Shown here one piece after another: positions 1,508-17,600 of a DNA stretch of 64,000 nucleotides. The position numbers and the translations under genes are program-made. The stretch spans positions 253 to 64,252 of the forward strand of contig JAGABW010000011.1 in assembly GCA_017614465.1 (NCBI GenBank), read 5' to 3'. This stretch comes from Bacteroidaceae bacterium (GTDB lineage: Bacteria > Bacteroidota > Bacteroidia > Bacteroidales > Bacteroidaceae). A model generated the notes under the pieces. It had not been told where the DNA came from, did no database searches, and worked only from the letters and a program-made list of their open reading frames with translations. Positions within the stretch are counted from its first letter, which is position 1, and each line of letters begins with the position of its first letter.

Positions 1508-3025
1508 TTAAAACTGAAAATATATAAATGGTTGCACTTCCGATGATTTTGTCTGAATCACAATATATATCACAATCACGATGAGCAATGCTTTAACAAG
1601 CAATGGCATACGTACAACCTTGTCTTTTGTAAAATCAGACCATCTTGCAGGAATGAAATGAAGGAGAAAGCCCAACAGCATCAAACAACTTACAATTGAA
1701 TAACCTGTAACCCATTGAAGTGCGATCTGTGGTTCGAAATGCAGTCCTATCTGCATTATCATTGCCAGTGCATCCTCGAAATTTCTTTGACGGAAGAAAA
1801 TCCATGCCAGACATACGAAATGGAATGTAATTATCACACCCAAGAAACGCATGAAGCCATGAGATTTATAGTGTTTTGGACGACGAAGAATGGTATTCTT
1901 TATTTTATCGACCACGAGTGCCAAACCATGCATTCCACCCCATAAAATGAAGTTAAGACTTGCTCCATGCCATAAACCACCGAGCAACATCGTTATCATC
2001 AAGTTCAAATATTGACGGAATTTACCATGACGATTTCCGCCTAATGAGATATAGAGATAGTCTCTCAACCACGAAGACAGACTTATATGCCATCTGCGCC
2101 AGAACTCTTCAATAGATGCTGATTTATATGGTGATTCGAAGTTCTTTGGGAAACGGAAACCTAACAACAGAGCAATACCAATTGCCATATCACTATATCC
2201 CGAGAAATCACAATATATCTGAAGAGCATATCCATAAACAGCCATCAAATTCTCAAATCCACTATATAAAGTAGGCTGATCAAAGACTCTCTCCACAAAA
2301 TTCACACTTATATAATCACTGATAACAGCTTTCTTGAATAATCCGCCTACGATATAGAATATGCCTGCACCGAACATCTCCTTTGTTACCTCCAACGGCT
2401 TGCGTATCTGTGGCAGGAAATCACGTGCACGTACAATCGGACCTGCTACTAATTGTGGAAAGAAACTCACATAAAATGCATAATCAAGTATGTTGTTAAG
2501 CGGTTTCAACTGTCCTCTGTACACATCAATCGTATAACTCATTGACTGGAATGTGAAGAAACTGATTCCTACAGGAAGAAATATATCAAGTGCTGTGAAA
2601 TGTCCGCCACAGAAACTTGCATACAGTTCTCCGAAGAAATTGGTATATTTGAAATAGCCTAAGAGTCCTAAATCAACCAAAAGACTGATTATAAGCAGAA
2701 AACGTGCCAATGCACTATGTTTTATCTTTTGAGTTCCTTCTTCTACAATCGTGTTACGGGCATTTATCTTATTGATTGCTGCTGCTATGATGAAATCACT
2801 AAATGTTACAATTGCCAACAAATAAAAATATTCACCGCTACTCTTATAATAGAAAAAATAAGAGAATGCTGTAACAAATAACAAGCGTAAGGTAGTTGTC
2901 TTACCTAACAGCATGTATATAAATGTAAAACCAAGAAACAGCCACAAGAAAAATCCCGAAGAGAAAATCATCGGAGATAATTCATCGTACTTTAACAAGG
3001 CCTCTATTTTTGTATAATCTATCAT
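1508..3025 (-). CDS. MBOAT family O-acyltransferase (AlgI/DltB/PatA-like)
   Basis: 505 aa polytopic membrane protein with an MBOAT-like core (WRRWHISLSSWLRDYLYISLGGNR...LWHG). Confidence 0.85.
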   Translation of the reverse strand: MIDYTKIEALLKYDELSPMIFSSGFFLWLFLGFTFIYMLLGKTTTLRLLFVTAFSYFFYYKSSGEYFYLLAIVTFSDFIIAAAINKINARNTIVEEGTQKIKHSALARFLLIISLLVDLGLLGYFKYTNFFGELYASFCGGHFTALDIFLPVGISFFTFQSMSYTIDVYRGQLKPLNNILDYAFYVSFFPQLVAGPIVRARDFLPQIRKPLEVTKEMFGAGIFYIVGGLFKKAVISDYISVNFVERVFDQPTLYSGFENLMAVYGYALQIYCDFSGYSDMAIGIALLLGFRFPKNFESPYKSASIEEFWRRWHISLSSWLRDYLYISLGGNRHGKFRQYLNLMITMLLGGLWHGASLNFILWGGMHGLALVVDKIKNTILRRPKHYKSHGFMRFLGVIITFHFVCLAWIFFRQRNFEDALAMIMQIGLHFEPQIALQWVTGYSIVSCLMLLGFLLHFIPARWSDFTKDKVVRMPLLVKALLIVIVIYIVIQTKSSEVQPFIYFQF

Positions 3026-3119
3026 AAATATCTGAAATGGCAGACATTCTTACACCATTCTGTAATGTGTATAGTCTGAATTCTAATCATTGTTTACCGC
3101 TGGCATCACACTGATGTCT

Positions 3120-4529
3120 TTATCGGCATTTTAAACGACGTTGATAATTCATTTTTCCATTCTCGAGTGCATCAAACAGCAGTTTTCCAAGAACTGCCCC
3201 TCCTTTGAAGTTTATATGTGTGTAATCCAGATTGGCTAACCCTTCACGTTGCATTTTGGCAGTACTTCCAGACCCACCCATCGCTTGTTGCAGATTCCAA
3301 AAAGCCACATGCTCCTCTTGCGCCATCTGTCGTTGTGCAGCAACCAGTTCTGTAACACCTTTCATGGTCTCAAACTGGCCATTAGCCCCTCGTTTGTCCC
3401 TGTTACTTACACTGACAATGAGGATACTTGTTTTAGGATATGCCTTACGGAAATTATGAATTCCTTTTTTAAACTTATCGCAATATGCATAATAGCCTTG
3501 TCGGGTTGGAGTTGACATGTTCAAGCCATAATGCATTATTATAAGATCATAATGACGTAGTTTGGCAAAATCTGTCAAGGTCTCAACTGGGATAGTTGAC
3601 AAATGCCAACCAACACTACCACGCATAGAGAAATTATCCACTACAACACCTTTTGTTCCCTCTAAAGCTAAACCATAGAAGCGACCGCCTCCACTTACAT
3701 CTGCTGTGAAACTACCGATTTTGCCTTTATAGACATCTGATTTCAGACCTAAGCTGATATTCTGAACTGAATCCGACAATGAATCAGGCTTATTCTGGCC
3801 GTGTGATGCCACACATTTTGTTTCCTTACCATTGATTGATGCCACTATATTGGTGTTCACATCTGGGGTATAGAACAATGTTACCTGATCTACACTATCA
3901 AGATGTTCCGGGAATACTCGTTGCTGTCCACGCACATTTATACGTGCACCTGAATTTGGGATATAATAACGTGAATTTATTCCTTGTAATGCAGAATTAA
4001 AGCCTTTTCCACGATCTATCACACTATAATCCTGCCATCCGCTGCTGTTTTCAATAACAGTGGTACGGAATCCTGCAACCTGTGAATGAATATCGATGAA
4101 ACCGACACCGCAACCACCATATTGTGTCTGCAGATAATCGCGCAAATTGGCTGTAAAGATATCACCCTCGATGAATGAATCGCCGAAATAGGCAATGCGG
4201 ACAACTCGTTTCTTTGTGTTGCCGAGAGCCTCATAGAAAGAATCCATCTCACGGTCAATCATCATCGAATCACGAAAATCCTCGATAGGAATCATTCCTT
4301 CTGGCACAGAATCGGTTTTGGCAACGACTTTTAGGCGTTCCAATCTTATAGAATCCTCATATTGTTGTGCTTGTTCCGCTTCTTTCTGTTCTGCGTCAGA
4401 GTTTGATCTCACATCCGACAATATATCAACCTTACGGAGTTGTACTCCGAAAACAGTCAATGGAGACAAATAATACATTGCCCCAAGAACCGCCACAACA
4501 ATCAATGTGAGTATAAATGTACGTTTCAC
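3120..4529 (-). CDS. SGNH/GDSL-type hydrolase or acyltransferase partner of the MBOAT protein
   Basis: N-terminal signal anchor, GDS block (IAYFGDSFIEGD), and position immediately downstream of the MBOAT gene. Confidence 0.65.
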   Translation of the reverse strand: MKRTFILTLIVVAVLGAMYYLSPLTVFGVQLRKVDILSDVRSNSDAEQKEAEQAQQYEDSIRLERLKVVAKTDSVPEGMIPIEDFRDSMMIDREMDSFYEALGNTKKRVVRIAYFGDSFIEGDIFTANLRDYLQTQYGGCGVGFIDIHSQVAGFRTTVIENSSGWQDYSVIDRGKGFNSALQGINSRYYIPNSGARINVRGQQRVFPEHLDSVDQVTLFYTPDVNTNIVASINGKETKCVASHGQNKPDSLSDSVQNISLGLKSDVYKGKIGSFTADVSGGGRFYGLALEGTKGVVVDNFSMRGSVGWHLSTIPVETLTDFAKLRHYDLIIMHYGLNMSTPTRQGYYAYCDKFKKGIHNFRKAYPKTSILIVSVSNRDKRGANGQFETMKGVTELVAAQRQMAQEEHVAFWNLQQAMGGSGSTAKMQREGLANLDYTHINFKGGAVLGKLLFDALENGKMNYQRRLKCR

Positions 4530-4563
4530 TTAAATATTCTCTTTTATTGCTTTCAAAAAAAGG

Positions 4564-5076
4564 TTATTCGTCAACCACTGGAAAATGTAGGCTGGAAAGA
4601 ACCTTTTTCACATATGGTCCGCACATAGGTTTCATTTCCCGAAGATACTTAACTGTAACTTCTGCGTAATAATCATCCTTCCATATCACACGACGATAAA
4701 AATGATAACCATTTTCAATTCCTGAAATATCAAATCCATCCTTACGAAGTTTAGAACTCTTTAATTCCACCCCGCTGCTAACATATCGATTAATAGTTTC
4801 TTTATATGAATCTGATAATGATTTGGAAAAAATATTCATATCGTTGAATCCTCCAAACACAATTATACAGGCCTTTTCTGCGTTAGCTCCTTTCATCTTA
4901 ATTGTCACGCCGTCCTTTGCCATCGGTTCTTCACCTGCAGTCATGAAATCGGGATAACTTACAACATAACCATAACGATCATTAAAATAAGTTTTCATCG
5001 ACTGAGCATTTATTTTCCCAACGAAAACAAACGCAGCAACAATTACTATTGTAAAAAACTGTCTTAGGAAATTCAT
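4564..5076 (-). CDS. hypothetical secreted protein
   Basis: 170 aa ORF with a signal peptide (VAAFVFVGKINAQS). No recognisable motif. Confidence 0.6.
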   Translation of the reverse strand: MNFLRQFFTIVIVAAFVFVGKINAQSMKTYFNDRYGYVVSYPDFMTAGEEPMAKDGVTIKMKGANAEKACIIVFGGFNDMNIFSKSLSDSYKETINRYVSSGVELKSSKLRKDGFDISGIENGYHFYRRVIWKDDYYAEVTVKYLREMKPMCGPYVKKVLSSLHFPVVDE

Positions 5077-5300
5077 CGATAATTTATATTGTGCATATTC
5101 GTTGCAAAGTTACGAAATATTTAGCATTTTACAACATACAACAATCAAATTATTATATTTTACATAAAAACTTAAGTTTTTATAAACCAAATCATCTTAT
5201 ATCGTTGATTATCGACTATGGATAAATTCGGGAAATGCTGTCATATAAACACTATTAATCCGAATAATCCATAACGGAGAATCAACAGACGAGGATATCT

Positions 5301-5336
5301 AATAAAAGTTCTCGCACCAGCAAGGCACGAGAACTT
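5301..5336 (-). terminator. intrinsic terminator downstream of 5383..6378
   Basis: 9-bp stem AAGTTCTCG/CGAGAACTT, followed on the minus strand by TTTTATT. Confidence 0.6.
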
Positions 5337-5382
5337 CTATCATTTATGATTCTTATTTACTTTATCAGGATAAAAAACGTTT

Positions 5383-6378
5383 TTAACTATATAAATCTAC
5401 AATTTCATAGAATTCTTTCTTACCCGATTTTCCACCAAAATCATATCCTTTCAATGGAGTTATCTCATACAGGTTCTTTCCTTTATCGTCTTTAGTTGCC
5501 ATTTTGAAAGAGCCTTTTATGTTTACACGACTTTCATCCACAGTGTAAGGTTCATCACCAAGAACATCCTTCAAATCAAAGTGATATCCATATTCGGACT
5601 CATCGTTAAGACCATCATACTCTGAGCACCAGAACTTACCTTTGTATCTGTATTCCAGAATCTCGCCGGCAATACCGACTTCATATGTTATCTTCCAATC
5701 AGAAGTAAAAGTAAAAAGTTTACTATATGGTTTGCCGTCCTCCTCGTATTCTTTCATTATCATTTTCGGACCGTAAAAAAGAGATATCTCTTCTCTCTCA
5801 CCTTTACCATTGACTGCAACAATGCCTTGATGATCCATAAAATTATCGTCCAAATCATCAAAATCACTTTCTTTCAACACATCGAAGCCTTTAATATCAC
5901 GAAAACCATGTAATGCGCCAGATGTCTCAAAATCTCCATTTTCTACTGCCAGGAACACGTCCAAGATCTCTACAGTTCCGTCGTCCATCAACATACACAG
6001 TACTGGATGATAATCCTGACCGATATCTTTCATGAAAACACTTACGACCGTATCGCCCTTGGTCTCAACCATACGTGGTTCTGTACCTACATGCCACTGA
6101 TCCTCGTCGATTCCTAAAAAACGTATTGCTTCGGGAATATTGAATGACAATTCAACCTTTCCATCTTTTATCGTTGCTCTGTATGACCACGAATCGCCAT
6201 CCATACATCCATATTCACATTCAGTCTGTAAATCAAACTTTACAGCAGGCAACGTGTCTTTTACTGAGACCTCAGTAGAGTCGCTATCGCCTGTGTTGCC
6301 ATTGTTCTGTCCTGTACATGCGCAACATAGCACACAGGTCATCAAGATGAATATCTGAATCTGTTTAGAAAACCTCAT
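5383..6378 (-). CDS. hypothetical acidic lipoprotein
   Basis: 331 aa with signal peptide plus Cys (LCCACTGQ). Asp/Glu-rich; no recognised domain. Confidence 0.65.
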   Translation of the reverse strand: MRFSKQIQIFILMTCVLCCACTGQNNGNTGDSDSTEVSVKDTLPAVKFDLQTECEYGCMDGDSWSYRATIKDGKVELSFNIPEAIRFLGIDEDQWHVGTEPRMVETKGDTVVSVFMKDIGQDYHPVLCMLMDDGTVEILDVFLAVENGDFETSGALHGFRDIKGFDVLKESDFDDLDDNFMDHQGIVAVNGKGEREEISLFYGPKMIMKEYEEDGKPYSKLFTFTSDWKITYEVGIAGEILEYRYKGKFWCSEYDGLNDESEYGYHFDLKDVLGDEPYTVDESRVNIKGSFKMATKDDKGKNLYEITPLKGYDFGGKSGKKEFYEIVDLYS

Positions 6379-6395
6379 AATAGTCCTTTTTTATA

Positions 6396-6821
6396 TTAGC
6401 GTTTGAAGAAATCAAAGAAAAAAAACAAAGCCGCATAACGTTGATCCACGCCTTTTGCTGAACCTATACACGAATTACTTCCGTTACGTACGGTTCCATC
6501 AGAACAAACCCTACCAATCATTGAGTTTGAGCCGTTACGCACGGTGCCGTCTCGTTCCACCCGTCCTATTGCAGAGTTGGAACCATTACGTACAGTTCCG
6601 TCGCTGTCAAGTTTTCCAACACGTGAGTTAGACGAGTTTCTTATTGTTCCATCTCGTTCAATCTTTCCTATTGTAGAATTTGAACTGTTACGCACTGTGC
6701 CATCACTTTCAATCCTACCGATATACGCATTTGACTGATTGCGCAAGTCTTGTGCTTTAACAACATCTGCCGACAGAAGCATTACACCAAGAATCAGTAG
6801 AAAGAATTTAATTCGTTTCAT
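6396..6821 (-). CDS. secreted tandem-repeat protein (17-aa repeat SNSxIGRxExDGTVRNG)
   Basis: Signal peptide followed by five full and one partial 17-aa repeats. The antisense ORF 6544..6738 is a repeat artefact. Confidence 0.75.
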   Translation of the reverse strand: MKRIKFFLLILGVMLLSADVVKAQDLRNQSNAYIGRIESDGTVRNSSNSTIGKIERDGTIRNSSNSRVGKLDSDGTVRNGSNSAIGRVERDGTVRNGSNSMIGRVCSDGTVRNGSNSCIGSAKGVDQRYAALFFFFDFFKR

Positions 6822-7003
6822 ATATCAATGATTTTAGGTTTATATTGTTTATATAAGATAATTTTACATGTTTATAGTTTAAATCACAACCAATAATTGT
6901 GTTCAACACGTAAGAACATTTACGTTAAAACAAAAATACCTTAACACTGAGTAAATCTACAGCAGCGTTAAGGCATTTCTTTATTTAATAATCAAATGAT
7001 GAA

Positions 7004-8368
7004 TTATGCTTTTGCTGCTTCTGTCTTTACACTTTTCTTCTTTCCGTATTTAACAGCGAGGAACACAATTCCACCAATCACTAACAATATACAAATTGCA
7101 AGAATCGGACGGTAGAACAACCATGCAATGGCGATAACGACAAGTGACCATACAAGACCAACGATAAACGCAATCACATTTGCACCGAAATTGAGGATGC
7201 TTGAGATGAATGGTATAATCTTAGCCAAAGTAACGAAGATGTTAAGCACACCTTTTATACCAAATATCACGATAGCAATACCTACAAGACGTAAAATCCA
7301 TGTCATCATGCTATTTTCGTCTTTTGCACTCTGAATCATCTCTGCGCTTGATTTTGTTCCCATATCAAGACGAGAGAATTTCTGTCCGTTGCCTGCCACA
7401 TACTCAGCGAATGTAGCCTTCTCAACTTGAGCAATAATTGATACGTCGTTACTTGCTGGAACAATCTCATACTTAACCATGATATCACCGACAGAAGGAG
7501 CACTTGGATTTTCACCGAGGTAAATTGTGTTACCACTTATATGGATATAATCATAATTGGTTTCTTCCCATTCTGTTGGAACATCAATTGAATCATTCTT
7601 AACCTCTGAGCTGTCTGCAACTTCGTTCACTTCTGTCTTAGAAGGAACAGACTTTGCAGCAGACTGACTTTCAATAACATCACGTCCGTTATCCTTGTAA
7701 ACCTTACGAACGGCATTATCATATTTTGATAGTAATTCATCTGAAAGAGTTACATCAAATGCCTCAGAACCACCGATAGACGAAATAAGGAAATTAGGTA
7801 ATTTATATGCGCCAAAAGACACGTCACTTGCCTGGAATGATGTATTTTCCAAGTCTCCACACACTGTAAAGTTGTAGATTTTAGTACCCATGCTTCTGCT
7901 TTCCTCGCTTACTGCATTCTGGTTAAAGTCATTAGAATTCACAGGTCTGCTTGTCCACTCGCGTGAATAACTATATGTAGTAACGGTTTCCTGACCACCG
8001 CCAAACTTATCCTTAGTTTCTTCTTTCTTGTCTTCTACCCACTGATAATACTTGACATCACGAATGAGTTTTGTCGCATTTGTCTGTATCTCAAACTGAT
8101 CATCACGAAGTTGATCGTGCGCAACCGCCGTTCCTGTAGCATGAACCAGTTTTCCATTAAATGAGTTGTCAACACTTGAAATGTTGCTCATTTCTACCAC
8201 ATTTTTCTCAGCATCCTTTATCGCATCTGCTGTCTTCACTGCACGACCTTCATTCCACCAAAGAAGGATTGTACCACCTATAAATAAGATTATTCCCATA
8301 AGAATTCCACCAAAGGAATTCTTCACACGTGAACCATAACTTGTTGTTGTTGTTTCTGTGTATGCCAT
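7004..8368 (-). CDS. TMEM43/LUMA-like (DUF1625-type) membrane protein
   Basis: One N-terminal TM followed by LLWWNEGRAV, a large soluble domain, and a cluster of C-terminal TM helices. This is the architecture I recall for bacterial TMEM43 homologues. Confidence 0.6.
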   Translation of the reverse strand: MAYTETTTTSYGSRVKNSFGGILMGIILFIGGTILLWWNEGRAVKTADAIKDAEKNVVEMSNISSVDNSFNGKLVHATGTAVAHDQLRDDQFEIQTNATKLIRDVKYYQWVEDKKEETKDKFGGGQETVTTYSYSREWTSRPVNSNDFNQNAVSEESRSMGTKIYNFTVCGDLENTSFQASDVSFGAYKLPNFLISSIGGSEAFDVTLSDELLSKYDNAVRKVYKDNGRDVIESQSAAKSVPSKTEVNEVADSSEVKNDSIDVPTEWEETNYDYIHISGNTIYLGENPSAPSVGDIMVKYEIVPASNDVSIIAQVEKATFAEYVAGNGQKFSRLDMGTKSSAEMIQSAKDENSMMTWILRLVGIAIVIFGIKGVLNIFVTLAKIIPFISSILNFGANVIAFIVGLVWSLVVIAIAWLFYRPILAICILLVIGGIVFLAVKYGKKKSVKTEAAKA

Positions 8369-8581: not shown

Positions 8582-9703
8582 CTACGAATCCAACAAGTCA
8601 TCAAGTCTTTTATATTTCAAAATCTGTTCTGTCTCAGTATTATTACGTAAAAAATACATATATCCGTCTTTTGAAATGCCAAAACTGGTTATAGTAAATG
8701 GCACATTAACCTTTAATATAGGATTACCGTCCCAATCAAACACCATTAACGAACAAGTTTGCTTATCATCCGAGGTCTCGTAATCTTTATAACTTACACC
8801 ATGATATAACGCCACAAAATAATCAGAATAGGAAACAACCCCGCCAAAACACTTCAACATTGAACCACGTGAGAACATTGAAGTACCAGATTTATCAACC
8901 GCATTTACATCCATCAGCGCATCACCAATGCATAATGTCTTTTTGAACGTACCATCAAAAGAATACAAGTTAATCTGATTCAGTCGCAGCATCGCCTCAG
9001 CTATTCTTTGGTGATCAGGGCTTAAACTATATAAATATGAGATTGTATTTATATCATTCTCAACTCGAAAATCATTAAGAGTCTCAATTCCTGATATATC
9101 TTGGAAAGAATTTCCTGATAACAACTTACGATTATATTTATTATATCCTAATAATAAGTCTGAATAATAGTAAATAGAGTCGTCTAACCTTGACATCCAA
9201 CGACAAGATTGCATTTCAACATTCGGAGTGATATCTGTTATCGAATCATTACCAAGCAACAAGCTCTGTGTCAGATTACATCGGTATAAATGATTCTTAT
9301 TCGTCATGAACTCACAATATAAATTCTTATCATCACATTTAAAAGTCAAAGAAGACGGTGGAGACGAGAACTCATTATGACCATGTCCCTTTCTTATCAG
9401 CCAAGTCTTAAACTGATTATCATTTAGCGAATATATCTTCCAATAATAATCTGCTCCCGTGAAAGCACACACCAACAAACTATCATATATAAACATGTTA
9501 CTACAGCCTTCAATTCCTGTACAAACATTCTGCAAGTCTTTTTCCGACACATCTACGGTTCTTGTAAACGTTATATTTTCCACATCCTCAAAACACATAT
9601 ATGATTCAGGAAGATGATTACAACATCCCAGGAAAAAACACACCCCAATTAGAGATACGATTTTAGTTATAAATCTCAAATGTATATATATAGTATTTAT
9701 CAT
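8582..9703 (-). CDS. 6-bladed beta-propeller-type lipoprotein, paralogue P1
   Basis: Lipobox FFLGCC and a KGHGHNEF motif matching the GxGxxE[YF] motif shared by the paralogues. Overlaps P2 by 41 nt (17 nt if the TTG at 9679 is used). Confidence 0.7.
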   Translation of the reverse strand: MINTIYIHLRFITKIVSLIGVCFFLGCCNHLPESYMCFEDVENITFTRTVDVSEKDLQNVCTGIEGCSNMFIYDSLLVCAFTGADYYWKIYSLNDNQFKTWLIRKGHGHNEFSSPPSSLTFKCDDKNLYCEFMTNKNHLYRCNLTQSLLLGNDSITDITPNVEMQSCRWMSRLDDSIYYYSDLLLGYNKYNRKLLSGNSFQDISGIETLNDFRVENDINTISYLYSLSPDHQRIAEAMLRLNQINLYSFDGTFKKTLCIGDALMDVNAVDKSGTSMFSRGSMLKCFGGVVSYSDYFVALYHGVSYKDYETSDDKQTCSLMVFDWDGNPILKVNVPFTITSFGISKDGYMYFLRNNTETEQILKYKRLDDLLDS

Positions 9704-10799
9704 TGCTATTAGGTTTTATGTTTACTCCATAAAATTTATTATTATCTCCACTAAAAAATTGAATTATCCCTTGAATTCTTTCCTCTGCAACCAAGTCATA
9801 TGTTTTTCTATCATAAAACTGAAGTGATGTATAAGATTGTGCATCATCCATAATCTTATGAAAGCACGAACGCATGATATACTTATTGGTACATACTAGA
9901 GAAGAATTCAGGCTAACTCGCTTTATATCATCACTCATATATTCGTTATCAGCCTGATAAGAATAACTTCTATCCGCGTTTTGAAATTCATAGCCAAAAG
10001 TATATAAAACTGATTTCATGTCATTGTCATATACATATATTAATGAATCTACGGTATGACACACCATATATTCTTCTCCACATGGAACAGATCGGAAGTT
10101 CTCAAAATTAGGGGCCATATTATCTAAGTAATAATGAGGATAACTACCAAATAACTCCACAAATTTATTTCCGTCCAAGCTATATCTGCCCCATATACGA
10201 CCTTCTTTGTAACGGTTTTCATCTACACGAGAGAGATGCCTATCAACAATTGATAATGGTAAAATTACTTCATGATTGTCATTGATATATGCATCCATTC
10301 CACAATCTGTCATACTCATAACTACATATACGCTGGGAGAGGAGAAGTCATCCTTTTGAATCTCATCCTTCGCAAAATCAATTCTTCCCCTGTATTCAAT
10401 CGTATCACTCTCTGTATTATATATATACATAAACAAAGAAGCATCTATAATACAAATACGTTTTTCGTCATTAGCAAAAGGATAAGCATACATAAAACTT
10501 GGAATTTCCGTCTTGGCGTGACCTTTCGTTAGCATGCTGCCAATCAAAGAACCACTATTCTTATCGAATTTGAAGATTCTACAATAATATTTATCAGCAA
10601 AACCTATATAATCTTTTGTAGCAAAGAAATTTCCATCCCAACTAATACTGTCGGCGGATATTAAAACCGAATCTAATTTATGATGATAAGAAGTAAACTG
10701 CTTTACTCCCTTATGTATAAAAGATTGTCTATTTTGACAAGATATTACAAACTGAGAGATTACTATAACAAAAACGATAAACCTTGAAATCTTATTCAT
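9663..10799 (-). CDS. 6-bladed beta-propeller-type lipoprotein, paralogue P2 (motif degenerate)
   Basis: Lipobox FVISCQN. Similar length and layout to the neighbours; motif degraded to KGHAKTEI. Confidence 0.65.
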   Translation of the reverse strand: MNKISRFIVFVIVISQFVISCQNRQSFIHKGVKQFTSYHHKLDSVLISADSISWDGNFFATKDYIGFADKYYCRIFKFDKNSGSLIGSMLTKGHAKTEIPSFMYAYPFANDEKRICIIDASLFMYIYNTESDTIEYRGRIDFAKDEIQKDDFSSPSVYVVMSMTDCGMDAYINDNHEVILPLSIVDRHLSRVDENRYKEGRIWGRYSLDGNKFVELFGSYPHYYLDNMAPNFENFRSVPCGEEYMVCHTVDSLIYVYDNDMKSVLYTFGYEFQNADRSYSYQADNEYMSDDIKRVSLNSSLVCTNKYIMRSCFHKIMDDAQSYTSLQFYDRKTYDLVAEERIQGIIQFFSGDNNKFYGVNIKPNSNDKYYIYTFEIYN

Positions 10800-10893
10800 A
10801 AAACACTACAATTAATATTTACTGATAACCTATCATATTCACAACTTAAACATAAAACGCCCCATGAGCCGTATCATCTTTTTCATCCGTAGC

Positions 10894-11910
10894 TTATTTT
10901 AAATGATATTTCAATAATACTATATCATAATCACCTGCAGGCTCATTGCCAAGCATTTTATCACTAATAGCGTATAGATTATTTTTATGTAGGGCAACAG
11001 GAATAAACGGGAACAGGTTTGGAGTTTTCACTGTTCCACAATATGATTTTCCTGCAAGTCTGTCATATACATTGATCAACGTATAATCATTATTTATATA
11101 TGGAGTAAATACATACTTTTGAGCGACGAAGGATTGTCCTTTTGAATATATACCAACTGCTGCTTTTTTCTCCGAACTCAATTTGTAGTCCTTATCGGAT
11201 TCAACTCCGAAATCTAATCCATACAGAGCCGTCATCTGATTATTTTTCCATTCGTATATTGTATCCGAAATGGTTTCTAAAGCATAGACCCGACCTTCGC
11301 CATCATCACTAAATACACATGTACTTTCAATGTGATCCAGTTCCATTTTAGGTTTCACATACGTGTTTATCAGCGTTCCCTCCAAATCAACATGTAATAC
11401 AGACTTTAAGTCATTATACCCGCCTGCATTCCACAAAAGAAATCCATCTGGCACTTTTATAAAATCAAACGTATGAATCGGAATTGTTATTTGTCCCTGA
11501 TAGTTCAATGAATAATCATATTTCAATATCAACGAGGCCGCCATATCAAGAACATACAAGTATTCACCATCTATAGAAACAGACATTGGTTCAATATATT
11601 CGCCGGCACCATGCCCAACACGTTGTATCTGTTTAATTAAATGACCATCCTTCGTATTATACACAAAAAGCGATTTCATGTCATCTAATATAAATATTAA
11701 TGAATCATTTACACATGCTTTTCTTATCCTCGACAAAGGGATTTCTCCTTTTTCCAAAACCACAGAATCAACAGACTGGGTAAATACTGTATAATCAATT
11801 CCACTGTTACTATCTATTGATGGGTCTATTGGAATATTTGTCATGGTATCATGCTTCACATCACATGCTGTTAGCAATATCAGCATTATCAATAATAACT
11901 TCTCTTTCAT
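10894..11910 (-). CDS. 6-bladed beta-propeller-type lipoprotein, paralogue P3
   Basis: Lipobox LLTACDV and a VGHGAGEY motif preceded by FVYNTKDGHLI, typical of the BF3164/DUF5128-like family as I recall it. Confidence 0.7.
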   Translation of the reverse strand: MKEKLLLIMLILLTACDVKHDTMTNIPIDPSIDSNSGIDYTVFTQSVDSVVLEKGEIPLSRIRKACVNDSLIFILDDMKSLFVYNTKDGHLIKQIQRVGHGAGEYIEPMSVSIDGEYLYVLDMAASLILKYDYSLNYQGQITIPIHTFDFIKVPDGFLLWNAGGYNDLKSVLHVDLEGTLINTYVKPKMELDHIESTCVFSDDGEGRVYALETISDTIYEWKNNQMTALYGLDFGVESDKDYKLSSEKKAAVGIYSKGQSFVAQKYVFTPYINNDYTLINVYDRLAGKSYCGTVKTPNLFPFIPVALHKNNLYAISDKMLGNEPAGDYDIVLLKYHLK

Positions 11911-11936
11911 ATATATAATTTTAAGTAAGTGACAAG

Positions 11937-12040
11937 ATTTGACTTTACAGTCGGTGTTTAACTTTTCTCATGCACATGCTATAATGATAAACATGATTAA
12001 GCTTTGGGTGTCAGACTTATGGTAAAGAATGTTTTATTTT
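11937..12040 (-). repeat. conserved leader element, copy A (core only)
   Basis: 103/104 identical to 16137..16240 (single mismatch at 11967 versus 16167). Lies between P4 and P3 and supplies the last 7 codons and the stop of P4. Confidence 0.95.
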
Positions 12041-13168
12041 AGAAATTACAATCAAAGGATTATCAGATTCCTGATATTCATTAATAATCTGTTCATTTCT
12101 TTTATTAGCAAGCTCTATCTTATAATTGCGTTTCTGTGCTCCTTCTTTATAATGCTTTATTAATGAAGGGGAGACAACCATCGCAACAGTATTTGAAAGC
12201 CCTCCTACTGGATAAATCAAGGAACTAACCAAAGGAAATTCCTCATCATGTAACTCCAAACTCAAAATCGCTCTACGCGTTTCTTTAACTGCACTTACTA
12301 ATCCCGCTTCATTGGTATTAAATAAAAGCAAAGAATCTGAAGCTACAATATTATAGATCATCCATATCTTATTATCATTGTAATTGAAAAAAGAATTTAA
12401 ATTTAAGTTTTTGGATTCACCATAATCAAACCATCTATCACCAAAATTAATCGAGTTTTCCGATAAAATCTTTGTATCCCGTATCGAATATATTTTGTTT
12501 GAAAATGGCAAAGCAACCCAACAATTTTTGTCATCACTAGTCATCCATTTTCCAAGCCCCCATATTCCTTTAATAAATTCATTTTGGGTTAATAATACTT
12601 GATATTCACCACAAGGATTATGTTTATCAAATCTTCTTAACTCCATACCATTATCATCAGAAGACAGACATAATGCATATAAACTATTTCCTGAAATCGC
12701 TATTTCAAAATAGTATTCATTAAGTTGATATGTATTTATCCGATTTAGGTTCATATCAAATGTCATCATTCTATACGGAGCATCAAAATATACATATAAT
12801 ACCCCCTCATTAGGATCTATAGCAGCATCAAATATTCTTATATACTCATCTTTACCTTTACCGATGAGAGACTCTGTGGACTTTATAAAATTGCCATCAT
12901 TATCATAACATAACAACTTATTATTTTTTCTATCAACAATAAATATTCTATCATTAGATGCCAATATTCTCCATACATTGCCGATAATAGACTCAGAATC
13001 CATTGAAGATGGCTTTACAACACGAGTACTATCCAATAAGGATGATTTATCAATACATTCTATATAATTAACTACCATTTCATTAATGGGTTCTTGTATC
13101 GTACGACACGACGCCATACATAAAAGAAGCATTAATACATAGAATATGTTTTTACCATAAGTCTTCAT
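12017..13168 (-). CDS. 6-bladed beta-propeller-type lipoprotein, paralogue P4
   Basis: Lipobox CMASCRT and an IGKGKDEY motif preceded by LCYDNDGNFI. Confidence 0.7.
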   Translation of the reverse strand: MKTYGKNIFYVLMLLLCMASCRTIQEPINEMVVNYIECIDKSSLLDSTRVVKPSSMDSESIIGNVWRILASNDRIFIVDRKNNKLLCYDNDGNFIKSTESLIGKGKDEYIRIFDAAIDPNEGVLYVYFDAPYRMMTFDMNLNRINTYQLNEYYFEIAISGNSLYALCLSSDDNGMELRRFDKHNPCGEYQVLLTQNEFIKGIWGLGKWMTSDDKNCWVALPFSNKIYSIRDTKILSENSINFGDRWFDYGESKNLNLNSFFNYNDNKIWMIYNIVASDSLLLFNTNEAGLVSAVKETRRAILSLELHDEEFPLVSSLIYPVGGLSNTVAMVVSPSLIKHYKEGAQKRNYKIELANKRNEQIINEYQESDNPLIVISKIKHSLP

Positions 13169-13291
13169 CGAATGAGTTTTTATTTGTTAATAATTAATCT
13201 ATAAGATATTATTATGTATATATGTATATTTTATTAATTATTATATTTGTAATTTCGATTATGATTAACATTACAAATATCTTTTAACAAG

Positions 13292-13549
13292 TTTGATCGG
13301 CATTTTTCATATTGAAGTTTGCCAAGGATTTGACTTTACAGTCGGTGTTTAACTTTTCTCATGACTTCATGCTATAACGCAGGGACATGATTAAGCTGTA
13401 GGGTTAGACTTATGGTAAAGAAATTAGGGAATTCAAAACCATAAAGACTTGTCGATTATGCTTTAAAAGCAAACCGACGGTAAAACTAAATAAAAAGAAA
13501 ATAGCATCCAAATTTTTTAACAGAAAAATTAATAAAAATCTTTATTTTT
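13292..13549 (-). repeat. conserved leader element, copy B (long form, diverged)
   Basis: Aligns over about 260 bp with 16102..16359. The core runs about 13323..13422 and starts gccaaggatttgactttacagtcggtgtttaacttttctcatg. Lies upstream of P4. Confidence 0.9.
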
Positions 13550-13553
13550 TTGC

Positions 13554-14454: not shown

Positions 14455-15552
14455 TTATTTTATATGCCAATACAATACAGGATTATGTCCCGATTCAATG
14501 GTTTTGTTTTTCACCAAATCATCATTTATATTATCCGCTTGAACTACTTCAATAAATCCTTCAGATGTTGAATATTCGATTGGGTACTCCATACAACGTC
14601 CTAACTTTGAATCTATAACATGCATATATGGATAAAACTGACTCTCTAATGTAGTTTTATTAAACACAGACAAACATGGCATGTTTTTATCAAAACAAAC
14701 AATCCAAGCATAATCTGCATTTTCAGTTATATATTTTATATTTCCCCGACTATTAGCCAATCTTTCTTTGGTTTCATTACGGTCCAAACCTTTAACATCA
14801 TCATAAACTATATTGTTATTTCCAAAATCAATTTGATATAATATATCCAAACTATTATCCTCATTAATCTTATAAACATTATTGTCTAAATATCTATGAT
14901 ATGATAAATAACCATCAGGTGTTTTTTGAAATGGGTGAACCTCAACATGATCAATTCTATCATTATTTGTAAAATAATTCATTAGCACATGCAATTTTTC
15001 ATTTGTAACAACCAATTCACCCACATTATAATCAGTAGTCATAAAATAAAAACACCTATTTAAATATTCCATATTTTCGGCATAAAACGGTATTTCCCGT
15101 TTTTCAGTTAGTTTTCCATCAAAAGTATATGTATACACATTCTTGCGATTACAAAGGGCATAAATTAATTTGTTTTCTTCATCTATATTGAAATCACTTA
15201 TTGATATATATTCATTATGTCCACTTCCGATTTCTCCTATCTCACACAGAAATTTTCCTGTATTTACACTAAAGCACATCATCTTTCTGGCCAAATCTTT
15301 ATCTAATATAAACAATAAAGAATCAGAAATGACAATTTTATCTATATTACCAATCTTGGATTTCTCAGTTTCCTCTAATTTTAACATTTCAGATTTACTA
15401 AAAAATGATTGAATGTCTAAACTATCAGTTTCATTTAGTAGACTACAATCCCATTCATATTTTGCCATCTTAGGTTGTGTTGTGTTTGAATTACAAGAAT
15501 ATATAAACACCACAGCCAAAACAATCATTATATAGGTTAATTTTGATTTCAT
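14455..15552 (-). CDS. 6-bladed beta-propeller-type lipoprotein, paralogue P5
   Basis: Lipobox FIYSCNS and an IGSGHNEY motif preceded by FSVNTGKFL. Confidence 0.7.
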   Translation of the reverse strand: MKSKLTYIMIVLAVVFIYSCNSNTTQPKMAKYEWDCSLLNETDSLDIQSFFSKSEMLKLEETEKSKIGNIDKIVISDSLLFILDKDLARKMMCFSVNTGKFLCEIGEIGSGHNEYISISDFNIDEENKLIYALCNRKNVYTYTFDGKLTEKREIPFYAENMEYLNRCFYFMTTDYNVGELVVTNEKLHVLMNYFTNNDRIDHVEVHPFQKTPDGYLSYHRYLDNNVYKINEDNSLDILYQIDFGNNNIVYDDVKGLDRNETKERLANSRGNIKYITENADYAWIVCFDKNMPCLSVFNKTTLESQFYPYMHVIDSKLGRCMEYPIEYSTSEGFIEVVQADNINDDLVKNKTIESGHNPVLYWHIK

Positions 15553-15630
15553 GTTGTCTGTATTATAATCGGTTATATAAAAGAATAAATAGAAATATCA
15601 AATAAATCTTTATTCTATAATTCATACTAT

Positions 15631-15668
15631 ATACCTATCGGCAATAGGTGAATTATGCCGATAGGTAT
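15631..15668 (-). terminator. strong hairpin (possible partial terminator/attenuator) between the peptide gene and P5
   Basis: Perfect 13-bp inverted repeat ATACCTATCGGCA/TGCCGATAGGTAT with a 12-nt loop, 21 nt after the peptide stop. There is no clean U-run. Confidence 0.5.
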
Positions 15669-15689
15669 AATTAAATTAAAGTTCAATTA

Positions 15690-15986
15690 CTAACAATTTT
15701 TTCCACACTCACAAGTTTTATCACCTGGTGTATAACAAGGATTGCACGGACCATTCTCTTCACATGCACGATAGTCGCCAGTACCAACTCCTGGACAATC
15801 ATGAATTTGAGACCAAGCATATTTGGTCATTGCGGCAGCATCACCACCATCATCACTTAAAGCTTCAATATTCTCAGACATTAATGTACTTTCTTTAACA
15901 CTATATGCATCATACGCCTTAATGCCACCAAAGCCAGCAGCAACAACAGCAAATGCAAACATCGCAGTTTTTATAACTTTTTTCAT
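15690..15986 (-). CDS. small Cys-rich secreted/anchored peptide with NVEALA-like motif (98 aa)
   Basis: MKKVIKTAMFAFAVVAAGFGG... hydrophobic N-terminus, then SENIEALSDDGG, then a C-terminal 35 aa with 7 Cys. The track ORF starts at 16067, but that 27-aa extension precedes a canonical MKK signal start. Confidence 0.75.
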   Translation of the reverse strand: MKKVIKTAMFAFAVVAAGFGGIKAYDAYSVKESTLMSENIEALSDDGGDAAAMTKYAWSQIHDCPGVGTGDYRACEENGPCNPCYTPGDKTCECGKNC

Positions 15987-16101
15987 AATTAAATTTTGAT
16001 TTTTATTAATATTATTTGGGGACCTTTTCGGTCGGTATCCATCCTCTACCGGTACTGAGAATGGCATATCTCATGAAATATGTTTTCTTGATTTTTAATG
16101 A

Positions 16102-16359
16102 TTTGATTGGCATTTTCATAATGATTATTGCCAAGGATTTGACTTTACAGTCGGTGTTTAACTTTTATCATGCACATGCTATAATGATAAACATGATTAA
16201 GCTTTGGGTGTCAGACTTATGGTAAAGAATGTTTTATTTTATTCTATTCCATAAAGACTTGTTTGATTATGCTTTAAAAGCAAACCGACGGCAAAACTAA
16301 AAAAAAAAAAAAATAGCATCCAAATTTTTTAACAGAAAAATTAAAAAAATCTTTATTTT
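16102..16359 (-). repeat. conserved leader element, copy C (long form) upstream of the peptide gene
   Basis: Core 16137..16240 is 103/104 identical to copy A. The flanks align with copy B. Confidence 0.95.
16292..16324 (-). promoter_or_regulatory. candidate Bacteroidetes sigma-A-type promoter with poly(T)15 spacer
   Basis: Minus strand reads TTTG (16324-16321), a 21-nt spacer GATGCTA+T14, then TAGTTTTG (16299-16292), matching -33 TTTG / -7 TAnnTTTG. Confidence 0.45.
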
Positions 16360-16609: not shown

Positions 16610-17101
16610 TTACCTCCTTGTTATATCATCAACCTGTACTGTATCGGCTTTTGCCATTGATTCAGACTGATTTCGGTCGATAATATGGATGGTTGCAGTT
16701 ATATCTTCTGTACGGGTGTAGGTATCTGCTATAGAAGGCGCACCTGCATTATCCCCAACAGAATTGTCCTGCATTGTTCGTTCTGCGACATTTCCAATTG
16801 TGAGTGCAATGGCCACTACCGCTGCAGCTTTAAACAATGGAGTTATGCGTGAGACAAATTTTATGGTTTTAGCCTCTACAGCAGGTTCTTCATCCACCAT
16901 ATCAAGCATTCTTTGCTTGAAATCATCACTCAAACATTCTTGTGCTGCTTCACTCTCATAACTGAAAAGATCGGCATACTGCTGAAGATGTTCTGGTACA
17001 TCATGTTGCTTGAAGAAAGAATGCAGGATCTGTTCCTCCTCCAAAGTTGTCTCGCATTGCCAGTAGCGTTCGAGAAGTTGTTCGATGTACTTATAATCCA
17101 T
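16610..17101 (-). CDS. putative anti-sigma factor (single-pass membrane protein)
   Basis: 163 aa with one TM (LFKAAAVVAIALTIGNV). Overlaps the 3' end of the ECF sigma gene by 11 nt. Confidence 0.55.
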   Translation of the reverse strand: MDYKYIEQLLERYWQCETTLEEEQILHSFFKQHDVPEHLQQYADLFSYESEAAQECLSDDFKQRMLDMVDEEPAVEAKTIKFVSRITPLFKAAAVVAIALTIGNVAERTMQDNSVGDNAGAPSIADTYTRTEDITATIHIIDRNQSESMAKADTVQVDDITRR

Positions 17102-17600
17102 TTTTTTGTTTTTTAAGTTGTTCTTTTAACTGTTGTCTTGCTCTGAAAAGTGTTACTTTTACATCTGCCAGACTTATATTCATCATTAAAGATATTTCTT
17201 GGTAGTTTCGGCCTTCGATGTCTCTCAACTGAATGACTGTCCTTTGTTTCTCAGGCATTCTGTTAATCAGTTCGTTTATAATCTCATACCTTTGATTGTA
17301 TATTAATCGTTCATCGGGCATGTGCTGATTATCGAATCCGTCAACTCCGCTATCTTCGAGAGAGATGTTTTTGTTTTCATGCTTTGCGTTGTGGTCAAGT
17401 GCCTGGTTTCTGCAGACTGTCATCGCATAAACGGTGAGATTATCTACTTCCTTCAGTTTCTCGCGCCCTTCCCAAAGTTTGATCAGTGTATCTTGCACGA
17501 CATCTTCTGCTTCTTGCTTGTTGCACGTAATTCGCAACGCAAGCCTGTAGAGTTTATCTCCAAGTGGCAATATGTCGTTCTTGAAACTGATCTCTTTCAT
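17091..17600 (-). CDS. ECF-type RNA polymerase sigma-70 family factor
   Basis: Region 2 (AEDVVQDTLIKLW) and region 4 (QRTVIQLRDIEGRNYQEISLMMNISLADVKVTLFRARQQL). Confidence 0.85.
   Translation of the reverse strand: MKEISFKNDILPLGDKLYRLALRITCNKQEAEDVVQDTLIKLWEGREKLKEVDNLTVYAMTVCRNQALDHNAKHENKNISLEDSGVDGFDNQHMPDERLIYNQRYEIINELINRMPEKQRTVIQLRDIEGRNYQEISLMMNISLADVKVTLFRARQQLKEQLKKQKNGL

Follow-up and report, generated by a model that had tools for sequence, protein, structure and literature searches.

Introduction

Polymorphic toxins of the CdiA-CT/CdiI and Rhs types are huge proteins that depend on dedicated secretion systems, are paired with small immunity proteins and carry the junction motifs VENN or PxxxxDPxGL. 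In the conotoxin superfamilies, a mature peptide that is hypervariable, rich in disulfides and reliant on thiol-disulfide oxidoreductases follows a highly conserved signal and pro-region, and the methylamine dehydrogenase set combines the Cys-rich light chain MauA, the propeller MauB, MauD and MauE. Bacteroides have no general disulfide (Dsb) machinery, and the loci of the bacteroidetocins encode a thiol oxidoreductase of their own, in many cases together with a multi-pass membrane protein, by which the disulfides are made (Coyne et al. 2019, PMC6671954). The bacteroidetocins themselves are class IIf bacteriocins with a 15-amino-acid (aa) double-glycine leader and a C39-peptidase ABC exporter (PMC6671954). 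Here we set beside these systems a small gene on the minus strand of a 64,000-nucleotide (nt) stretch of DNA from a Bacteroidaceae bacterium (contig JAGABW010000011.1), the whole of which we call the window. The gene encodes an NVEALA-type peptide and stands in a cassette with genes for a six-bladed beta-propeller lipoprotein and a thioredoxin-like lipoprotein. Our preferred reading, to which we assign a probability of about 60%, is that its product is an exported, signal-peptidase-processed small protein that is oxidised by the private thioredoxin-like lipoprotein and whose variable tail has its cognate partner in the propeller lipoprotein encoded alongside.

Results

The gene encodes a 98-residue relative of the NVEALA family

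The open reading frame (ORF) called at this position (15690..16067, minus strand) starts with ATG and comprises 125 codons, with the translation quoted in an earlier, sequence-only reading of the window. That reading had proposed that the start was mis-called and that an internal ATG at 15986 opens a 98-aa form beginning MKKVIKTAMFAFAVVAAGFGG (MKKVIK...). To avoid long contig names, related loci on other contigs are given L-numbers below, and P0001 and P0162 are database proteins. In-frame translation upstream of the MKK start met stop codons 3-15 codons 5′ of it in L002, L004-6 and L008, and the frame of the extension was open only in the window, P0001 and L007. Nine of 11 close database homologues start exactly at MKK; of the other two, P0001 (99% identical to the window ORF) has the same extension and one has an unrelated extension. 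Likewise, ~140 of the best 150 family representatives from the leader-profile search described below begin at MKK and align from their own residue 1, and the alignment to the Pfam NVEALA model starts at residue 29 of the 125-aa form. Because of the upstream stops, the MKK starts of the homologues and the start of the Pfam alignment, the coding sequence is assigned to 15690-15986. The reassignment is well supported by these comparisons, in line with what had been proposed. That the 125-aa ORF from ATG 16067 is the real product is, on the other hand, highly improbable: the three sequences in which its frame is open come from near-identical strains, the 27-aa extension was looked for in homologues and contains stops in all homologous loci that are more distant, it is missing from the ~140 representatives, and it would put 27 polar residues ahead of the signal sequence. 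The gene should be shortened to 98 aa and named NVEALA-like, although it falls just below the Pfam cut-off.

The 98-aa form consists of the three parts that had been described: a basic and then hydrophobic N-terminus (residues 1-22), a linker region with LMSENIEALSDDGGD at residues 35-49, and a 35-aa core, CPGVGTGDYRACEENGPCNPCYTPGDKTCECGKNC, at residues 64-98 with seven cysteines (64, 75, 81, 84, 92, 94 and 98). Its N-terminal half is common to P0001 and 10 further homologues. A profile made from the first 50 residues was searched against 1.84 billion representative proteins and matched 510 protein clusters at E<=1e-3 and 150 at E<=1e-10; a scan of metagenome contigs with the same profile confirmed at least one locus. 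The 98-aa form matched PF14055 (NVEALA) over model positions 1-46 with an E-value of 1.3e-5 and 25.2 bits, the 125-aa form scored 23.6 bits, and both narrowly missed the curated gathering threshold of 27 bits. The resemblance to the NVEALA motif that had been noticed is thus borne out by a sub-threshold match and by the relatives, 59 of 60 sampled leader-profile relatives matching PF14055 (E<=0.01). NIEALS, at residues 39-44, fits N[VI]EAL[A/S/T] placed ~40 residues after the hydrophobic N-terminal segment. Among 153 members the family motif is LLxEN[VI]EALS followed by x-G-[D/E], with N in 149, V or I in 146, E in 126, A in 152, L in 139 and S in 132; beyond the motif, G occupies position +7 in 72 members and D or E position +8 in 101. 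Judged by these matches, the peptide is a slightly divergent, sub-threshold relative of a catalogued family without known function.

Family proteins range from 49 to 234 aa, so that the remark that 98 aa is long for NVEALA proteins (65-84 aa had been given as typical) reflected an outdated family description, and 98 aa is an ordinary length. The tails that follow the motif measure 4-188 aa (median 62 aa) and are unrelated in sequence across the family; mean column identity is 68% in the leader vs 13% over whole proteins. The layout of a conserved leader (residues 1-44) and a variable core, as it had been drawn from the single sequence, therefore extends to the family.

Searches for other descriptions of the peptide returned little. 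When the peptide, the neighbouring proteins and 60 relatives were scanned with NCBIfam, no family came up for the peptide; PLSDB plasmids searched in protein mode gave no match, PADLOC reported nothing meaningful, and the tail searched against PDB sequences gave a chance-level match alone (E 0.81). No second NVEALA peptide was found in the 64-kb window. A literature search found no paper naming NVEALA, DUF5128, PF17170 or the TolB-like lipoproteins, and one for BF3164 likewise gave nothing relevant. The features of the cassette and its surroundings are collected in Table 1.

Table 1. Features of the NVEALA-type cassette and related elements in the window.
Feature	Coordinates	Strand	Evidence
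Coding sequence of the 98-aa NVEALA-type protein, with stop	15690..15986	-	Stop codon 15690-15692; starts of homologues; upstream stops in other loci
Spurious 27-codon N-terminal extension, read as 5′ untranslated region	15987..16067	-	Frame open only in the window and near-identical strains
Conserved leader module, residues 1-44: Sec-type signal (MKK, 16 uncharged residues, A16-A17-G18), K23-A-Y25, LMSENIEALS	15855..15986	-	Invariant columns, family position frequencies, motif logo
Variable tail, residues 45-98: acidic/Gly linker DDGGD, then WS..H.CP..Y.ACE.NG..C..C	15693..15854	-	7-Cys core at 15693-15797
Perfect 14-bp hairpin (TATACCTATCGGCA / TGCCGATAGGTATA) directly 3′ of the peptide stop	15630..15669	-	Intergenic fold -33.1 kcal/mol, z -6.2
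Six-bladed beta-propeller lipoprotein, 365 aa, DUF5128/DUF4934	14455..15552	-	Pfam E 2e-40
Thioredoxin-like lipoprotein, 182 aa	13898..14446	-	Invariant lipobox Cys24 and C72-x-x-C75
Conserved upstream block, ~240 nt: Bacteroides-type promoter and long 5′ leader with ~70-nt invariant core	16108..16350	-	Repeat families D1-D6 and D14; alignment; promoter motif
Second copy of the upstream block, before a propeller gene without peptide	13292..13551	-	Repeats, alignment, core copy
Third copy of the upstream block, partial (core only), before propeller gene 10894-11910	11930..12038	-	Repeats, alignment, core copy
Four propeller-type lipoprotein genes without peptide or thioredoxin-like gene	8582..13168	-	12017-13168 (383 aa), 10894-11910 (338 aa), 9663-10799 (378 aa), 8582-9703 (373 aa)

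The variable tail is inherited together with the adjacent propeller

For the comparison of gene order we used ~14 independent cassettes, namely those of the window, L007 (two), L002, L004/6, L008, L010, L011, L012, L001, L013/14, L015/16, L017 and L021 (two). A propeller lipoprotein gene of the DUF5128/TolB-like, six-bladed type follows the peptide gene in every cassette with enough downstream sequence. Leader, tail and propeller were compared pairwise in 11 cassettes, tail similarity being expressed as a z-score against shuffled sequences. Tail z exceeded 3.5 only where the propellers were at least 36% identical, which was the case for the window and L013 (z 9.9), the window and L015 (7.3), L013 and L015 (3.8), and L017 and L010 (33). 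The leader was uncoupled from the tail: between the window and L004 the leaders are 86% identical, whereas the propellers share 12% and tail z is 1.3, and the leaders of the window and L013 are only 11% identical, yet tail z is 9.9. Whether the tail is conserved or novel had been raised as a check on the earlier reading, and the family alignment shows that it is not family-wide and has relatives only beside orthologous propellers. These relatives of the window tail are in L013 (44% identity over 39 aa, E 6e-10) and L015 (41% over 27 aa, E 1e-6).

The boundary between the two modules is visible in the DNA. Homology between the window and four other cassettes begins ~360 nt upstream and ends at 15852-15855, that is at codon 44-45, where S44 completes NIEALS. 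The window and L007 differ at 6 of 297 nt in the peptide gene and at 1 of 1098 nt in the adjacent propeller gene (Fisher p = 5e-4). Of the five codons that differ in the peptide, four lie in the tail, and all four change the amino acid; no amino-acid change occurs elsewhere in the peptide. In L013 (3332-3670), the propeller orthologue P0162 is accompanied by a peptide whose tail is homologous to that of the window and whose different, more ordinary N-terminus is a signal peptide in which a degenerate ...SQALAS stands where the window has NIEALS; a low-complexity insert, CSCGNSNCSCNSGGCNC, is also present. Because L013 joins a window-like tail to a different N-terminus, leader and tail are modules that can be exchanged.

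The N-terminus resembles a Sec-type signal and not a double-glycine leader

Exactly 16 uncharged residues separate K6 from K23 in 141 of 144 members. By inspection and family statistics, A-A-G/S at positions 16-18 fits the -3/-1 rule of signal peptidase I (A at 16 in 129, A at 17 in 126 and G or S at 18 in 134 of the 144), and an alternative cleavage site after K23-A24 would have bulky residues at -3. We read the N-terminus as a Sec-type signal that would be cleaved at this place. VVAAG is invariant in the hydrophobic segment, a feature atypical of an ordinary signal peptide. Two other kinds of leader were considered and rejected, a lipoprotein signal because the window leader has no lipobox Cys, and a prepilin-type leader because it has no G/F...E5 pattern.

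The acidic Gly-Gly stretch in the linker had reminded the sequence-only reading of double-glycine leader ends, and a thioether had been among its explanations for the odd number of cysteines. The gene would then encode the precursor of a bacteriocin or of a ribosomally synthesised and post-translationally modified peptide (RiPP), a C39-peptidase ABC exporter would cut after GG(D), and a thioether or a similar modification would take care of the odd Cys. Such a precursor would fit the semi-conserved xG[D/E]G at the boundary of the conserved and variable parts and the leader/core layout with a Cys-rich core. However, no C39/ABC exporter was found among the scanned window neighbours and large ORFs or in any of the ~14 related cassettes, and the window's large ORFs and the same cassettes contained no radical-SAM, lanthipeptide (LanB/C/M) or YcaO enzyme. 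Pfam scans of the cassette neighbours returned only propeller, thioredoxin-like, MauE and signal peptidase I (S26) proteins, an S26 paralogue recurring among them. In addition, double-glycine leaders lack a hydrophobic Sec-type signal, no NCBIfam leader family matched the peptide, and an odd Cys count is frequent in the family and is not fixed among alleles. We consider a double-glycine precursor very unlikely and have given up both suggestions, the thioether for want of a modifying enzyme nearby.

Cysteine number varies among tails and among alleles

Cysteine accounts for 5.7% of tail residues and is present in 147 of 150 tails of at least 20 aa. Even counts are modestly favoured (88 of 147, vs 59, or 40%, with an odd count; p = 0.02). 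The number also differs among three near-identical alleles, being 7 in the window, 8 in P0001 (G88C) and 8 in L007 (R73C), where codons 73 and 88 correspond to ~15768-15770 and ~15723-15725. These differences could reflect pressure to pair a newly gained Cys, or simply the fast evolution of the tail. The sub-family to which the window tail belongs keeps W, S, Y, E, G and four cysteines, C64, C75, C84 and C94. Because odd counts are common and alleles vary, the 7-Cys state is best seen as a lineage detail, with no evidence for a thioether, and the special chemistry that had been deduced from the odd count is not needed. Searches of Pfam, PDB and PADLOC revealed no resemblance of the tail or the peptide to a known toxin or solved structure, and no known toxin or immunity domain.

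Proteins encoded next to the peptide

The AlphaFold2 (AF2) model of the 365-aa propeller has a mean predicted local distance difference test (pLDDT) score of 81.3. Its best match in a fold search was 4RAA (BF0058, a structural-genomics protein without known function) with a template modelling (TM) score of 0.71-0.73, and the matches that followed were generic NHL/BamB/WD40 scaffolds, with no enzymes among them. A gene for a thioredoxin-like lipoprotein of ~185 aa is present in ~10 of the 14 cassettes. In an alignment of seven of these homologues, the lipobox Cys, the CxxC motif and G-x-P are invariant, and Redoxin was matched in two of the seven. When the protein was compared with PDB profiles, the two best matches were thioredoxin-like with the CxxC aligned, at weak E-values of 0.2-0.4. 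Its AF2 model, made from a shallow alignment, is poor (pLDDT 44.8); the order of secondary-structure elements fits the thioredoxin fold. A homologue search with the window protein returned two close relatives only.

Two further kinds of gene accompany some related cassettes. MauE (PF07291) is encoded near the cassettes of four loci (L013/14, L015/16, L017 and L021), and an intact S26 signal peptidase paralogue with SMxPT and KR catalytic boxes lies directly upstream of the NVEALA peptide in L001 and L021, the two copies being 77% identical; L013/14 has a fragment of such a gene. A 768/769-aa protein without Pfam match, 83% identical between the two loci, precedes the S26 paralogue in both L001 and L021. 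On these two unrelated contigs (L001 4536-7952; L021 1-2181), the trio of 768/769-aa protein, MauE (in L021) and S26 paralogue stands directly upstream of NVEALA-type cassettes and is a candidate for a shared maturation module. Scans with NCBIfam and Pfam gave no Mau match for the peptide, the propeller or the thioredoxin-like protein. A literature search on MauE with bacteriocin returned nothing relevant, and a paper on RiPP mining in Bacteroidales (PMC10352776) does not mention propeller, MauE, thioredoxin or S26.

A repeated promoter block precedes the cassette and a hairpin follows the peptide gene

The block upstream of the peptide gene contains a promoter motif with a -33 TTTG at 16324-16321, a 21-nt spacer and a -7 element, TAGTTTTG, at 16299-16292. 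The invariant core of the block reads CTTAATCATG...AAGTTAAACACCGACTGTAAAGTCAA...TTGGCAA, and three copies of it occur in the window where none would be expected by chance. The block was also found before the cassettes of L002, L004-6, L007, L008 and L011. Rfam searches of the cassette region gave no family matching it, the FuFi-1 hit being sub-threshold, on the opposite strand and with an E-value of 0.58. RNAalifold gave no informative covariation for the conserved 5′ leader, because the core is invariant.

Eleven other cassettes have, at the place occupied by the hairpin behind the window peptide gene, each its own non-homologous hairpin with z from -2.6 to -6.3 and a stem of 11-16 bp (the intergenic regions listed are those of L001, L002, L004, L007, L008, L010, L011, L013, L015 and L017). 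We infer that the hairpin may act as an attenuator or stabiliser that favours the peptide message over the downstream genes, as for abundant structural products.

Propellers without peptides and turnover of cassettes

Three of the four propeller genes that lack a peptide gene in the window match DUF5128 or TolB_like in Pfam, and the 378-aa one has no Pfam match. The orthologue of the 373-aa TolB-like gene is flanked by peptide and thioredoxin-like genes in L002; the window copy has lost both. L007, a metagenome-assembled genome of the Bacteroidaceae (RUI502, JAIKZH010000055) that is 94-98% identical to the window DNA, has at 2971-5527, against window 12038-13320, an extra cassette that encodes a 201-aa peptide, a 393-aa propeller and a 194-aa thioredoxin-like protein. 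Compared with L007, the window has one whole cassette fewer and one propeller gene (383 aa) more, with breakpoints in the repeated upstream block. Judging from these breakpoints, cassettes are gained and lost at the repeated block.

A DUF5128 gene retained in L001 is preceded by a 37-aa ORF (3222-3335; MKRKKFLAFGSIVVAMVAAAGSYHAYHFHTCSPCSSD) that looks like a truncated or decayed NVEALA-type leader. Just upstream of the cassette in the window (16610-17600, minus strand) are genes for an extracytoplasmic function (ECF) sigma factor of the GFO_1088/PG0214 type (169 aa) and an overlapping 163-aa protein, probably an anti-sigma factor; a functional link to this pair is unlikely, because other cassettes sit in unrelated contexts. 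Downstream of the cassettes (1508-8368, minus strand) lie genes for a TMEM43-like protein, a 5-fold beta-flower protein, two proteins without Pfam match, a GDSL-like lipase and an MBOAT protein, in synteny with L002.

Discussion

The observations can be arranged in the following sequence of events. The peptide would be transcribed from the Bacteroides-type promoter ~300 nt upstream, and the hairpin behind the gene would keep its message above that of the downstream genes; both elements are present in the sequence, and their functions are presumed. Residues 1-18 would act as a Sec signal peptide and be cut by signal peptidase I, for which some related loci seem to have a dedicated S26 paralogue. 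The pro-region, ...KAY...LLxEN[VI]EALS-xG[D/E], may serve as a lineage-conserved handling module, read by host machinery that is itself conserved rather than by the variable neighbours. In the periplasm the Cys-rich tail would be oxidised by the CxxC thioredoxin-like lipoprotein of the cassette, with a MauE-type partner in related loci, and the folded tail, which is co-inherited with the adjacent propeller, would bind it as a specific partner. Tail and propeller would together form a payload that is swapped behind a constant promoter-leader module at the junction right after NIEALS. The output would most likely be a secreted or periplasmic disulfide-bonded peptide that acts with or against its propeller, and our leading specific guess is a toxic peptide against which the propeller provides immunity.

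Several points weigh against this reading. Cleavage, export and disulfides are deduced from sequence, and the hydrophobic segment is so extremely conserved that it could instead be an anchor that stays uncleaved, or a place of intramembrane processing. With 40% of tails having an odd count, not all cysteines can be in intramolecular disulfides. The assignment of the thioredoxin-like protein combines its motif with the weak profile matches and the poor model described above, the fold of the propeller offers no functional clue, and the 64-kb window contains neither an S26 nor a MauE gene. The link between tail and propeller is one of co-inheritance over ~11 cassettes. Finally, propeller genes outnumber peptide genes in the window, so the propeller must have a role without a co-encoded peptide.

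Two more specific explanations have to be weighed within this frame. The processed Cys-rich tail may be a secreted antibacterial peptide of a polymorphic toxin/immunity system, in which the adjacent propeller would confer immunity and the propellers without peptides would be orphan immunity proteins against the peptides of neighbours. A conserved N-terminal module that ends at a sharp junction before a hypervariable C-terminal part, a downstream gene that co-varies with the tail, and accelerated amino-acid change in the tail between near-identical strains are all of the kind that such a system would produce. So are the four peptide-less propellers, two of them preceded by a repeat of the upstream block, the decayed 37-aa leader remnant before a retained propeller in L001, and the gain and loss of cassettes between strains, to which the analogy with bacteroidetocin loci, pairing a peptide with a thiol oxidoreductase, can be added. 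On the other hand, neither a known toxin nor a solved structure resembles the tails, a propeller of 365 aa would be a large immunity protein for a peptide of ~50 aa, there is no obvious way across the outer membrane, and the hairpin would lower the expression of immunity relative to that of the toxin. We hold this explanation to be possible and put it forward tentatively.

A good deal of the same evidence would also suit a stable complex, in which the peptide, cleaved or anchored, is a disulfide-rich small subunit docked permanently on the propeller to form a periplasmic or surface binding module, with the thioredoxin-like protein and MauE as maturation factors in a Mau-like layout. Peptide, propeller and thioredoxin-like genes co-occur, four related loci also have MauE, the tail is co-inherited with the propeller, and the fold matches of the propeller are binding scaffolds and not enzymes. 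This arrangement appears doubtful, somewhat more so than that of toxin and immunity protein, since NCBIfam and Pfam detect no sequence similarity to MauA, MauB or MauD, hypervariable tails are unexpected of an enzyme subunit, the hairpin implies unequal stoichiometry, and propellers persist without peptides.

NVEALA, DUF5128 and TolB-like lipoproteins are large multi-copy Bacteroidales families without known function, and the pattern described here yields a testable hypothesis about them, with a constant export module, a motif that serves as swap junction, co-inheritance of tail and propeller, a private disulfide oxidase, an attenuating hairpin and orphan propellers as its elements. It is conceivable, though we would not put the odds at even, that NVEALA peptides and DUF5128/TolB-like propellers make up a polymorphic system of peptides and partners that is widespread in gut and rumen Bacteroidales and has so far gone undescribed. 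A constant module of promoter, 5′ leader, Sec signal and NVEALS would there be recombined after the motif onto interchangeable payloads, each combining a disulfide-rich peptide with the cognate propeller and a thioredoxin-like oxidase of its own, some with MauE and a dedicated signal peptidase, and the whole would be a Sec-dependent bacteriocin/immunity arsenal with orphan immunity propellers. If the peptides are antagonistic, Bacteroidales would have, in addition to the bacteroidetocins, a second family of peptide toxins, this one Sec-dependent, and the puzzling arrays of propeller lipoprotein paralogues would be explained. The interest lies in this family-level architecture and not in the single gene of the window.

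Measured against described families and systems, the window peptide shares with PF14055 members the MKK-hydrophobic N-terminus followed by LLxEN[VI]EAL[S/A/T] and the Bacteroidales origin; it differs in its score below the 27-bit threshold, in its NIEALS motif and in exceeding the 65-84 aa given for the family, as do most of its relatives. It has in common with polymorphic toxins a constant N-terminal part, a short junction motif (here NIEALS) and an unrelated C-terminal part co-inherited with the next gene, as well as orphan downstream modules and strain-to-strain cassette turnover. In contrast to those toxins, the variable part of NVEALA proteins is ~50-150 aa long and the partner is a lipoprotein of 330-390 aa. 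The comparison with conotoxins is an analogy of gene architecture between these peptides and eukaryotic venom genes, with no evolutionary relationship. The methylamine dehydrogenase set likewise unites a small Cys-rich exported protein, a propeller, a thioredoxin-like factor and, as in related loci, MauE; however, homology is confined to MauE, which the window lacks, the tails are hypervariable, and no MauG or cofactor chemistry is expected. RiPP precursors share the conserved leader and variable core, but an adjacent modification enzyme was not found in the Pfam scans of cassette neighbours.

By analogy, the closest characterised logic is that of the bacteroidetocin loci. Both cases involve a small exported Cys-containing peptide of Bacteroidales with a thiol oxidoreductase encoded by the locus, here the CxxC lipoprotein with its weak fold assignment. 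The two peptides have no sequence similarity; that of the window has a Sec-type signal and a conserved pro-region in place of a double-glycine leader and C39 exporter, and in NVEALA cassettes a propeller lipoprotein is always adjacent. The locus is best read as a peptide-partner cassette and not as the precursor gene of a double-glycine bacteriocin.

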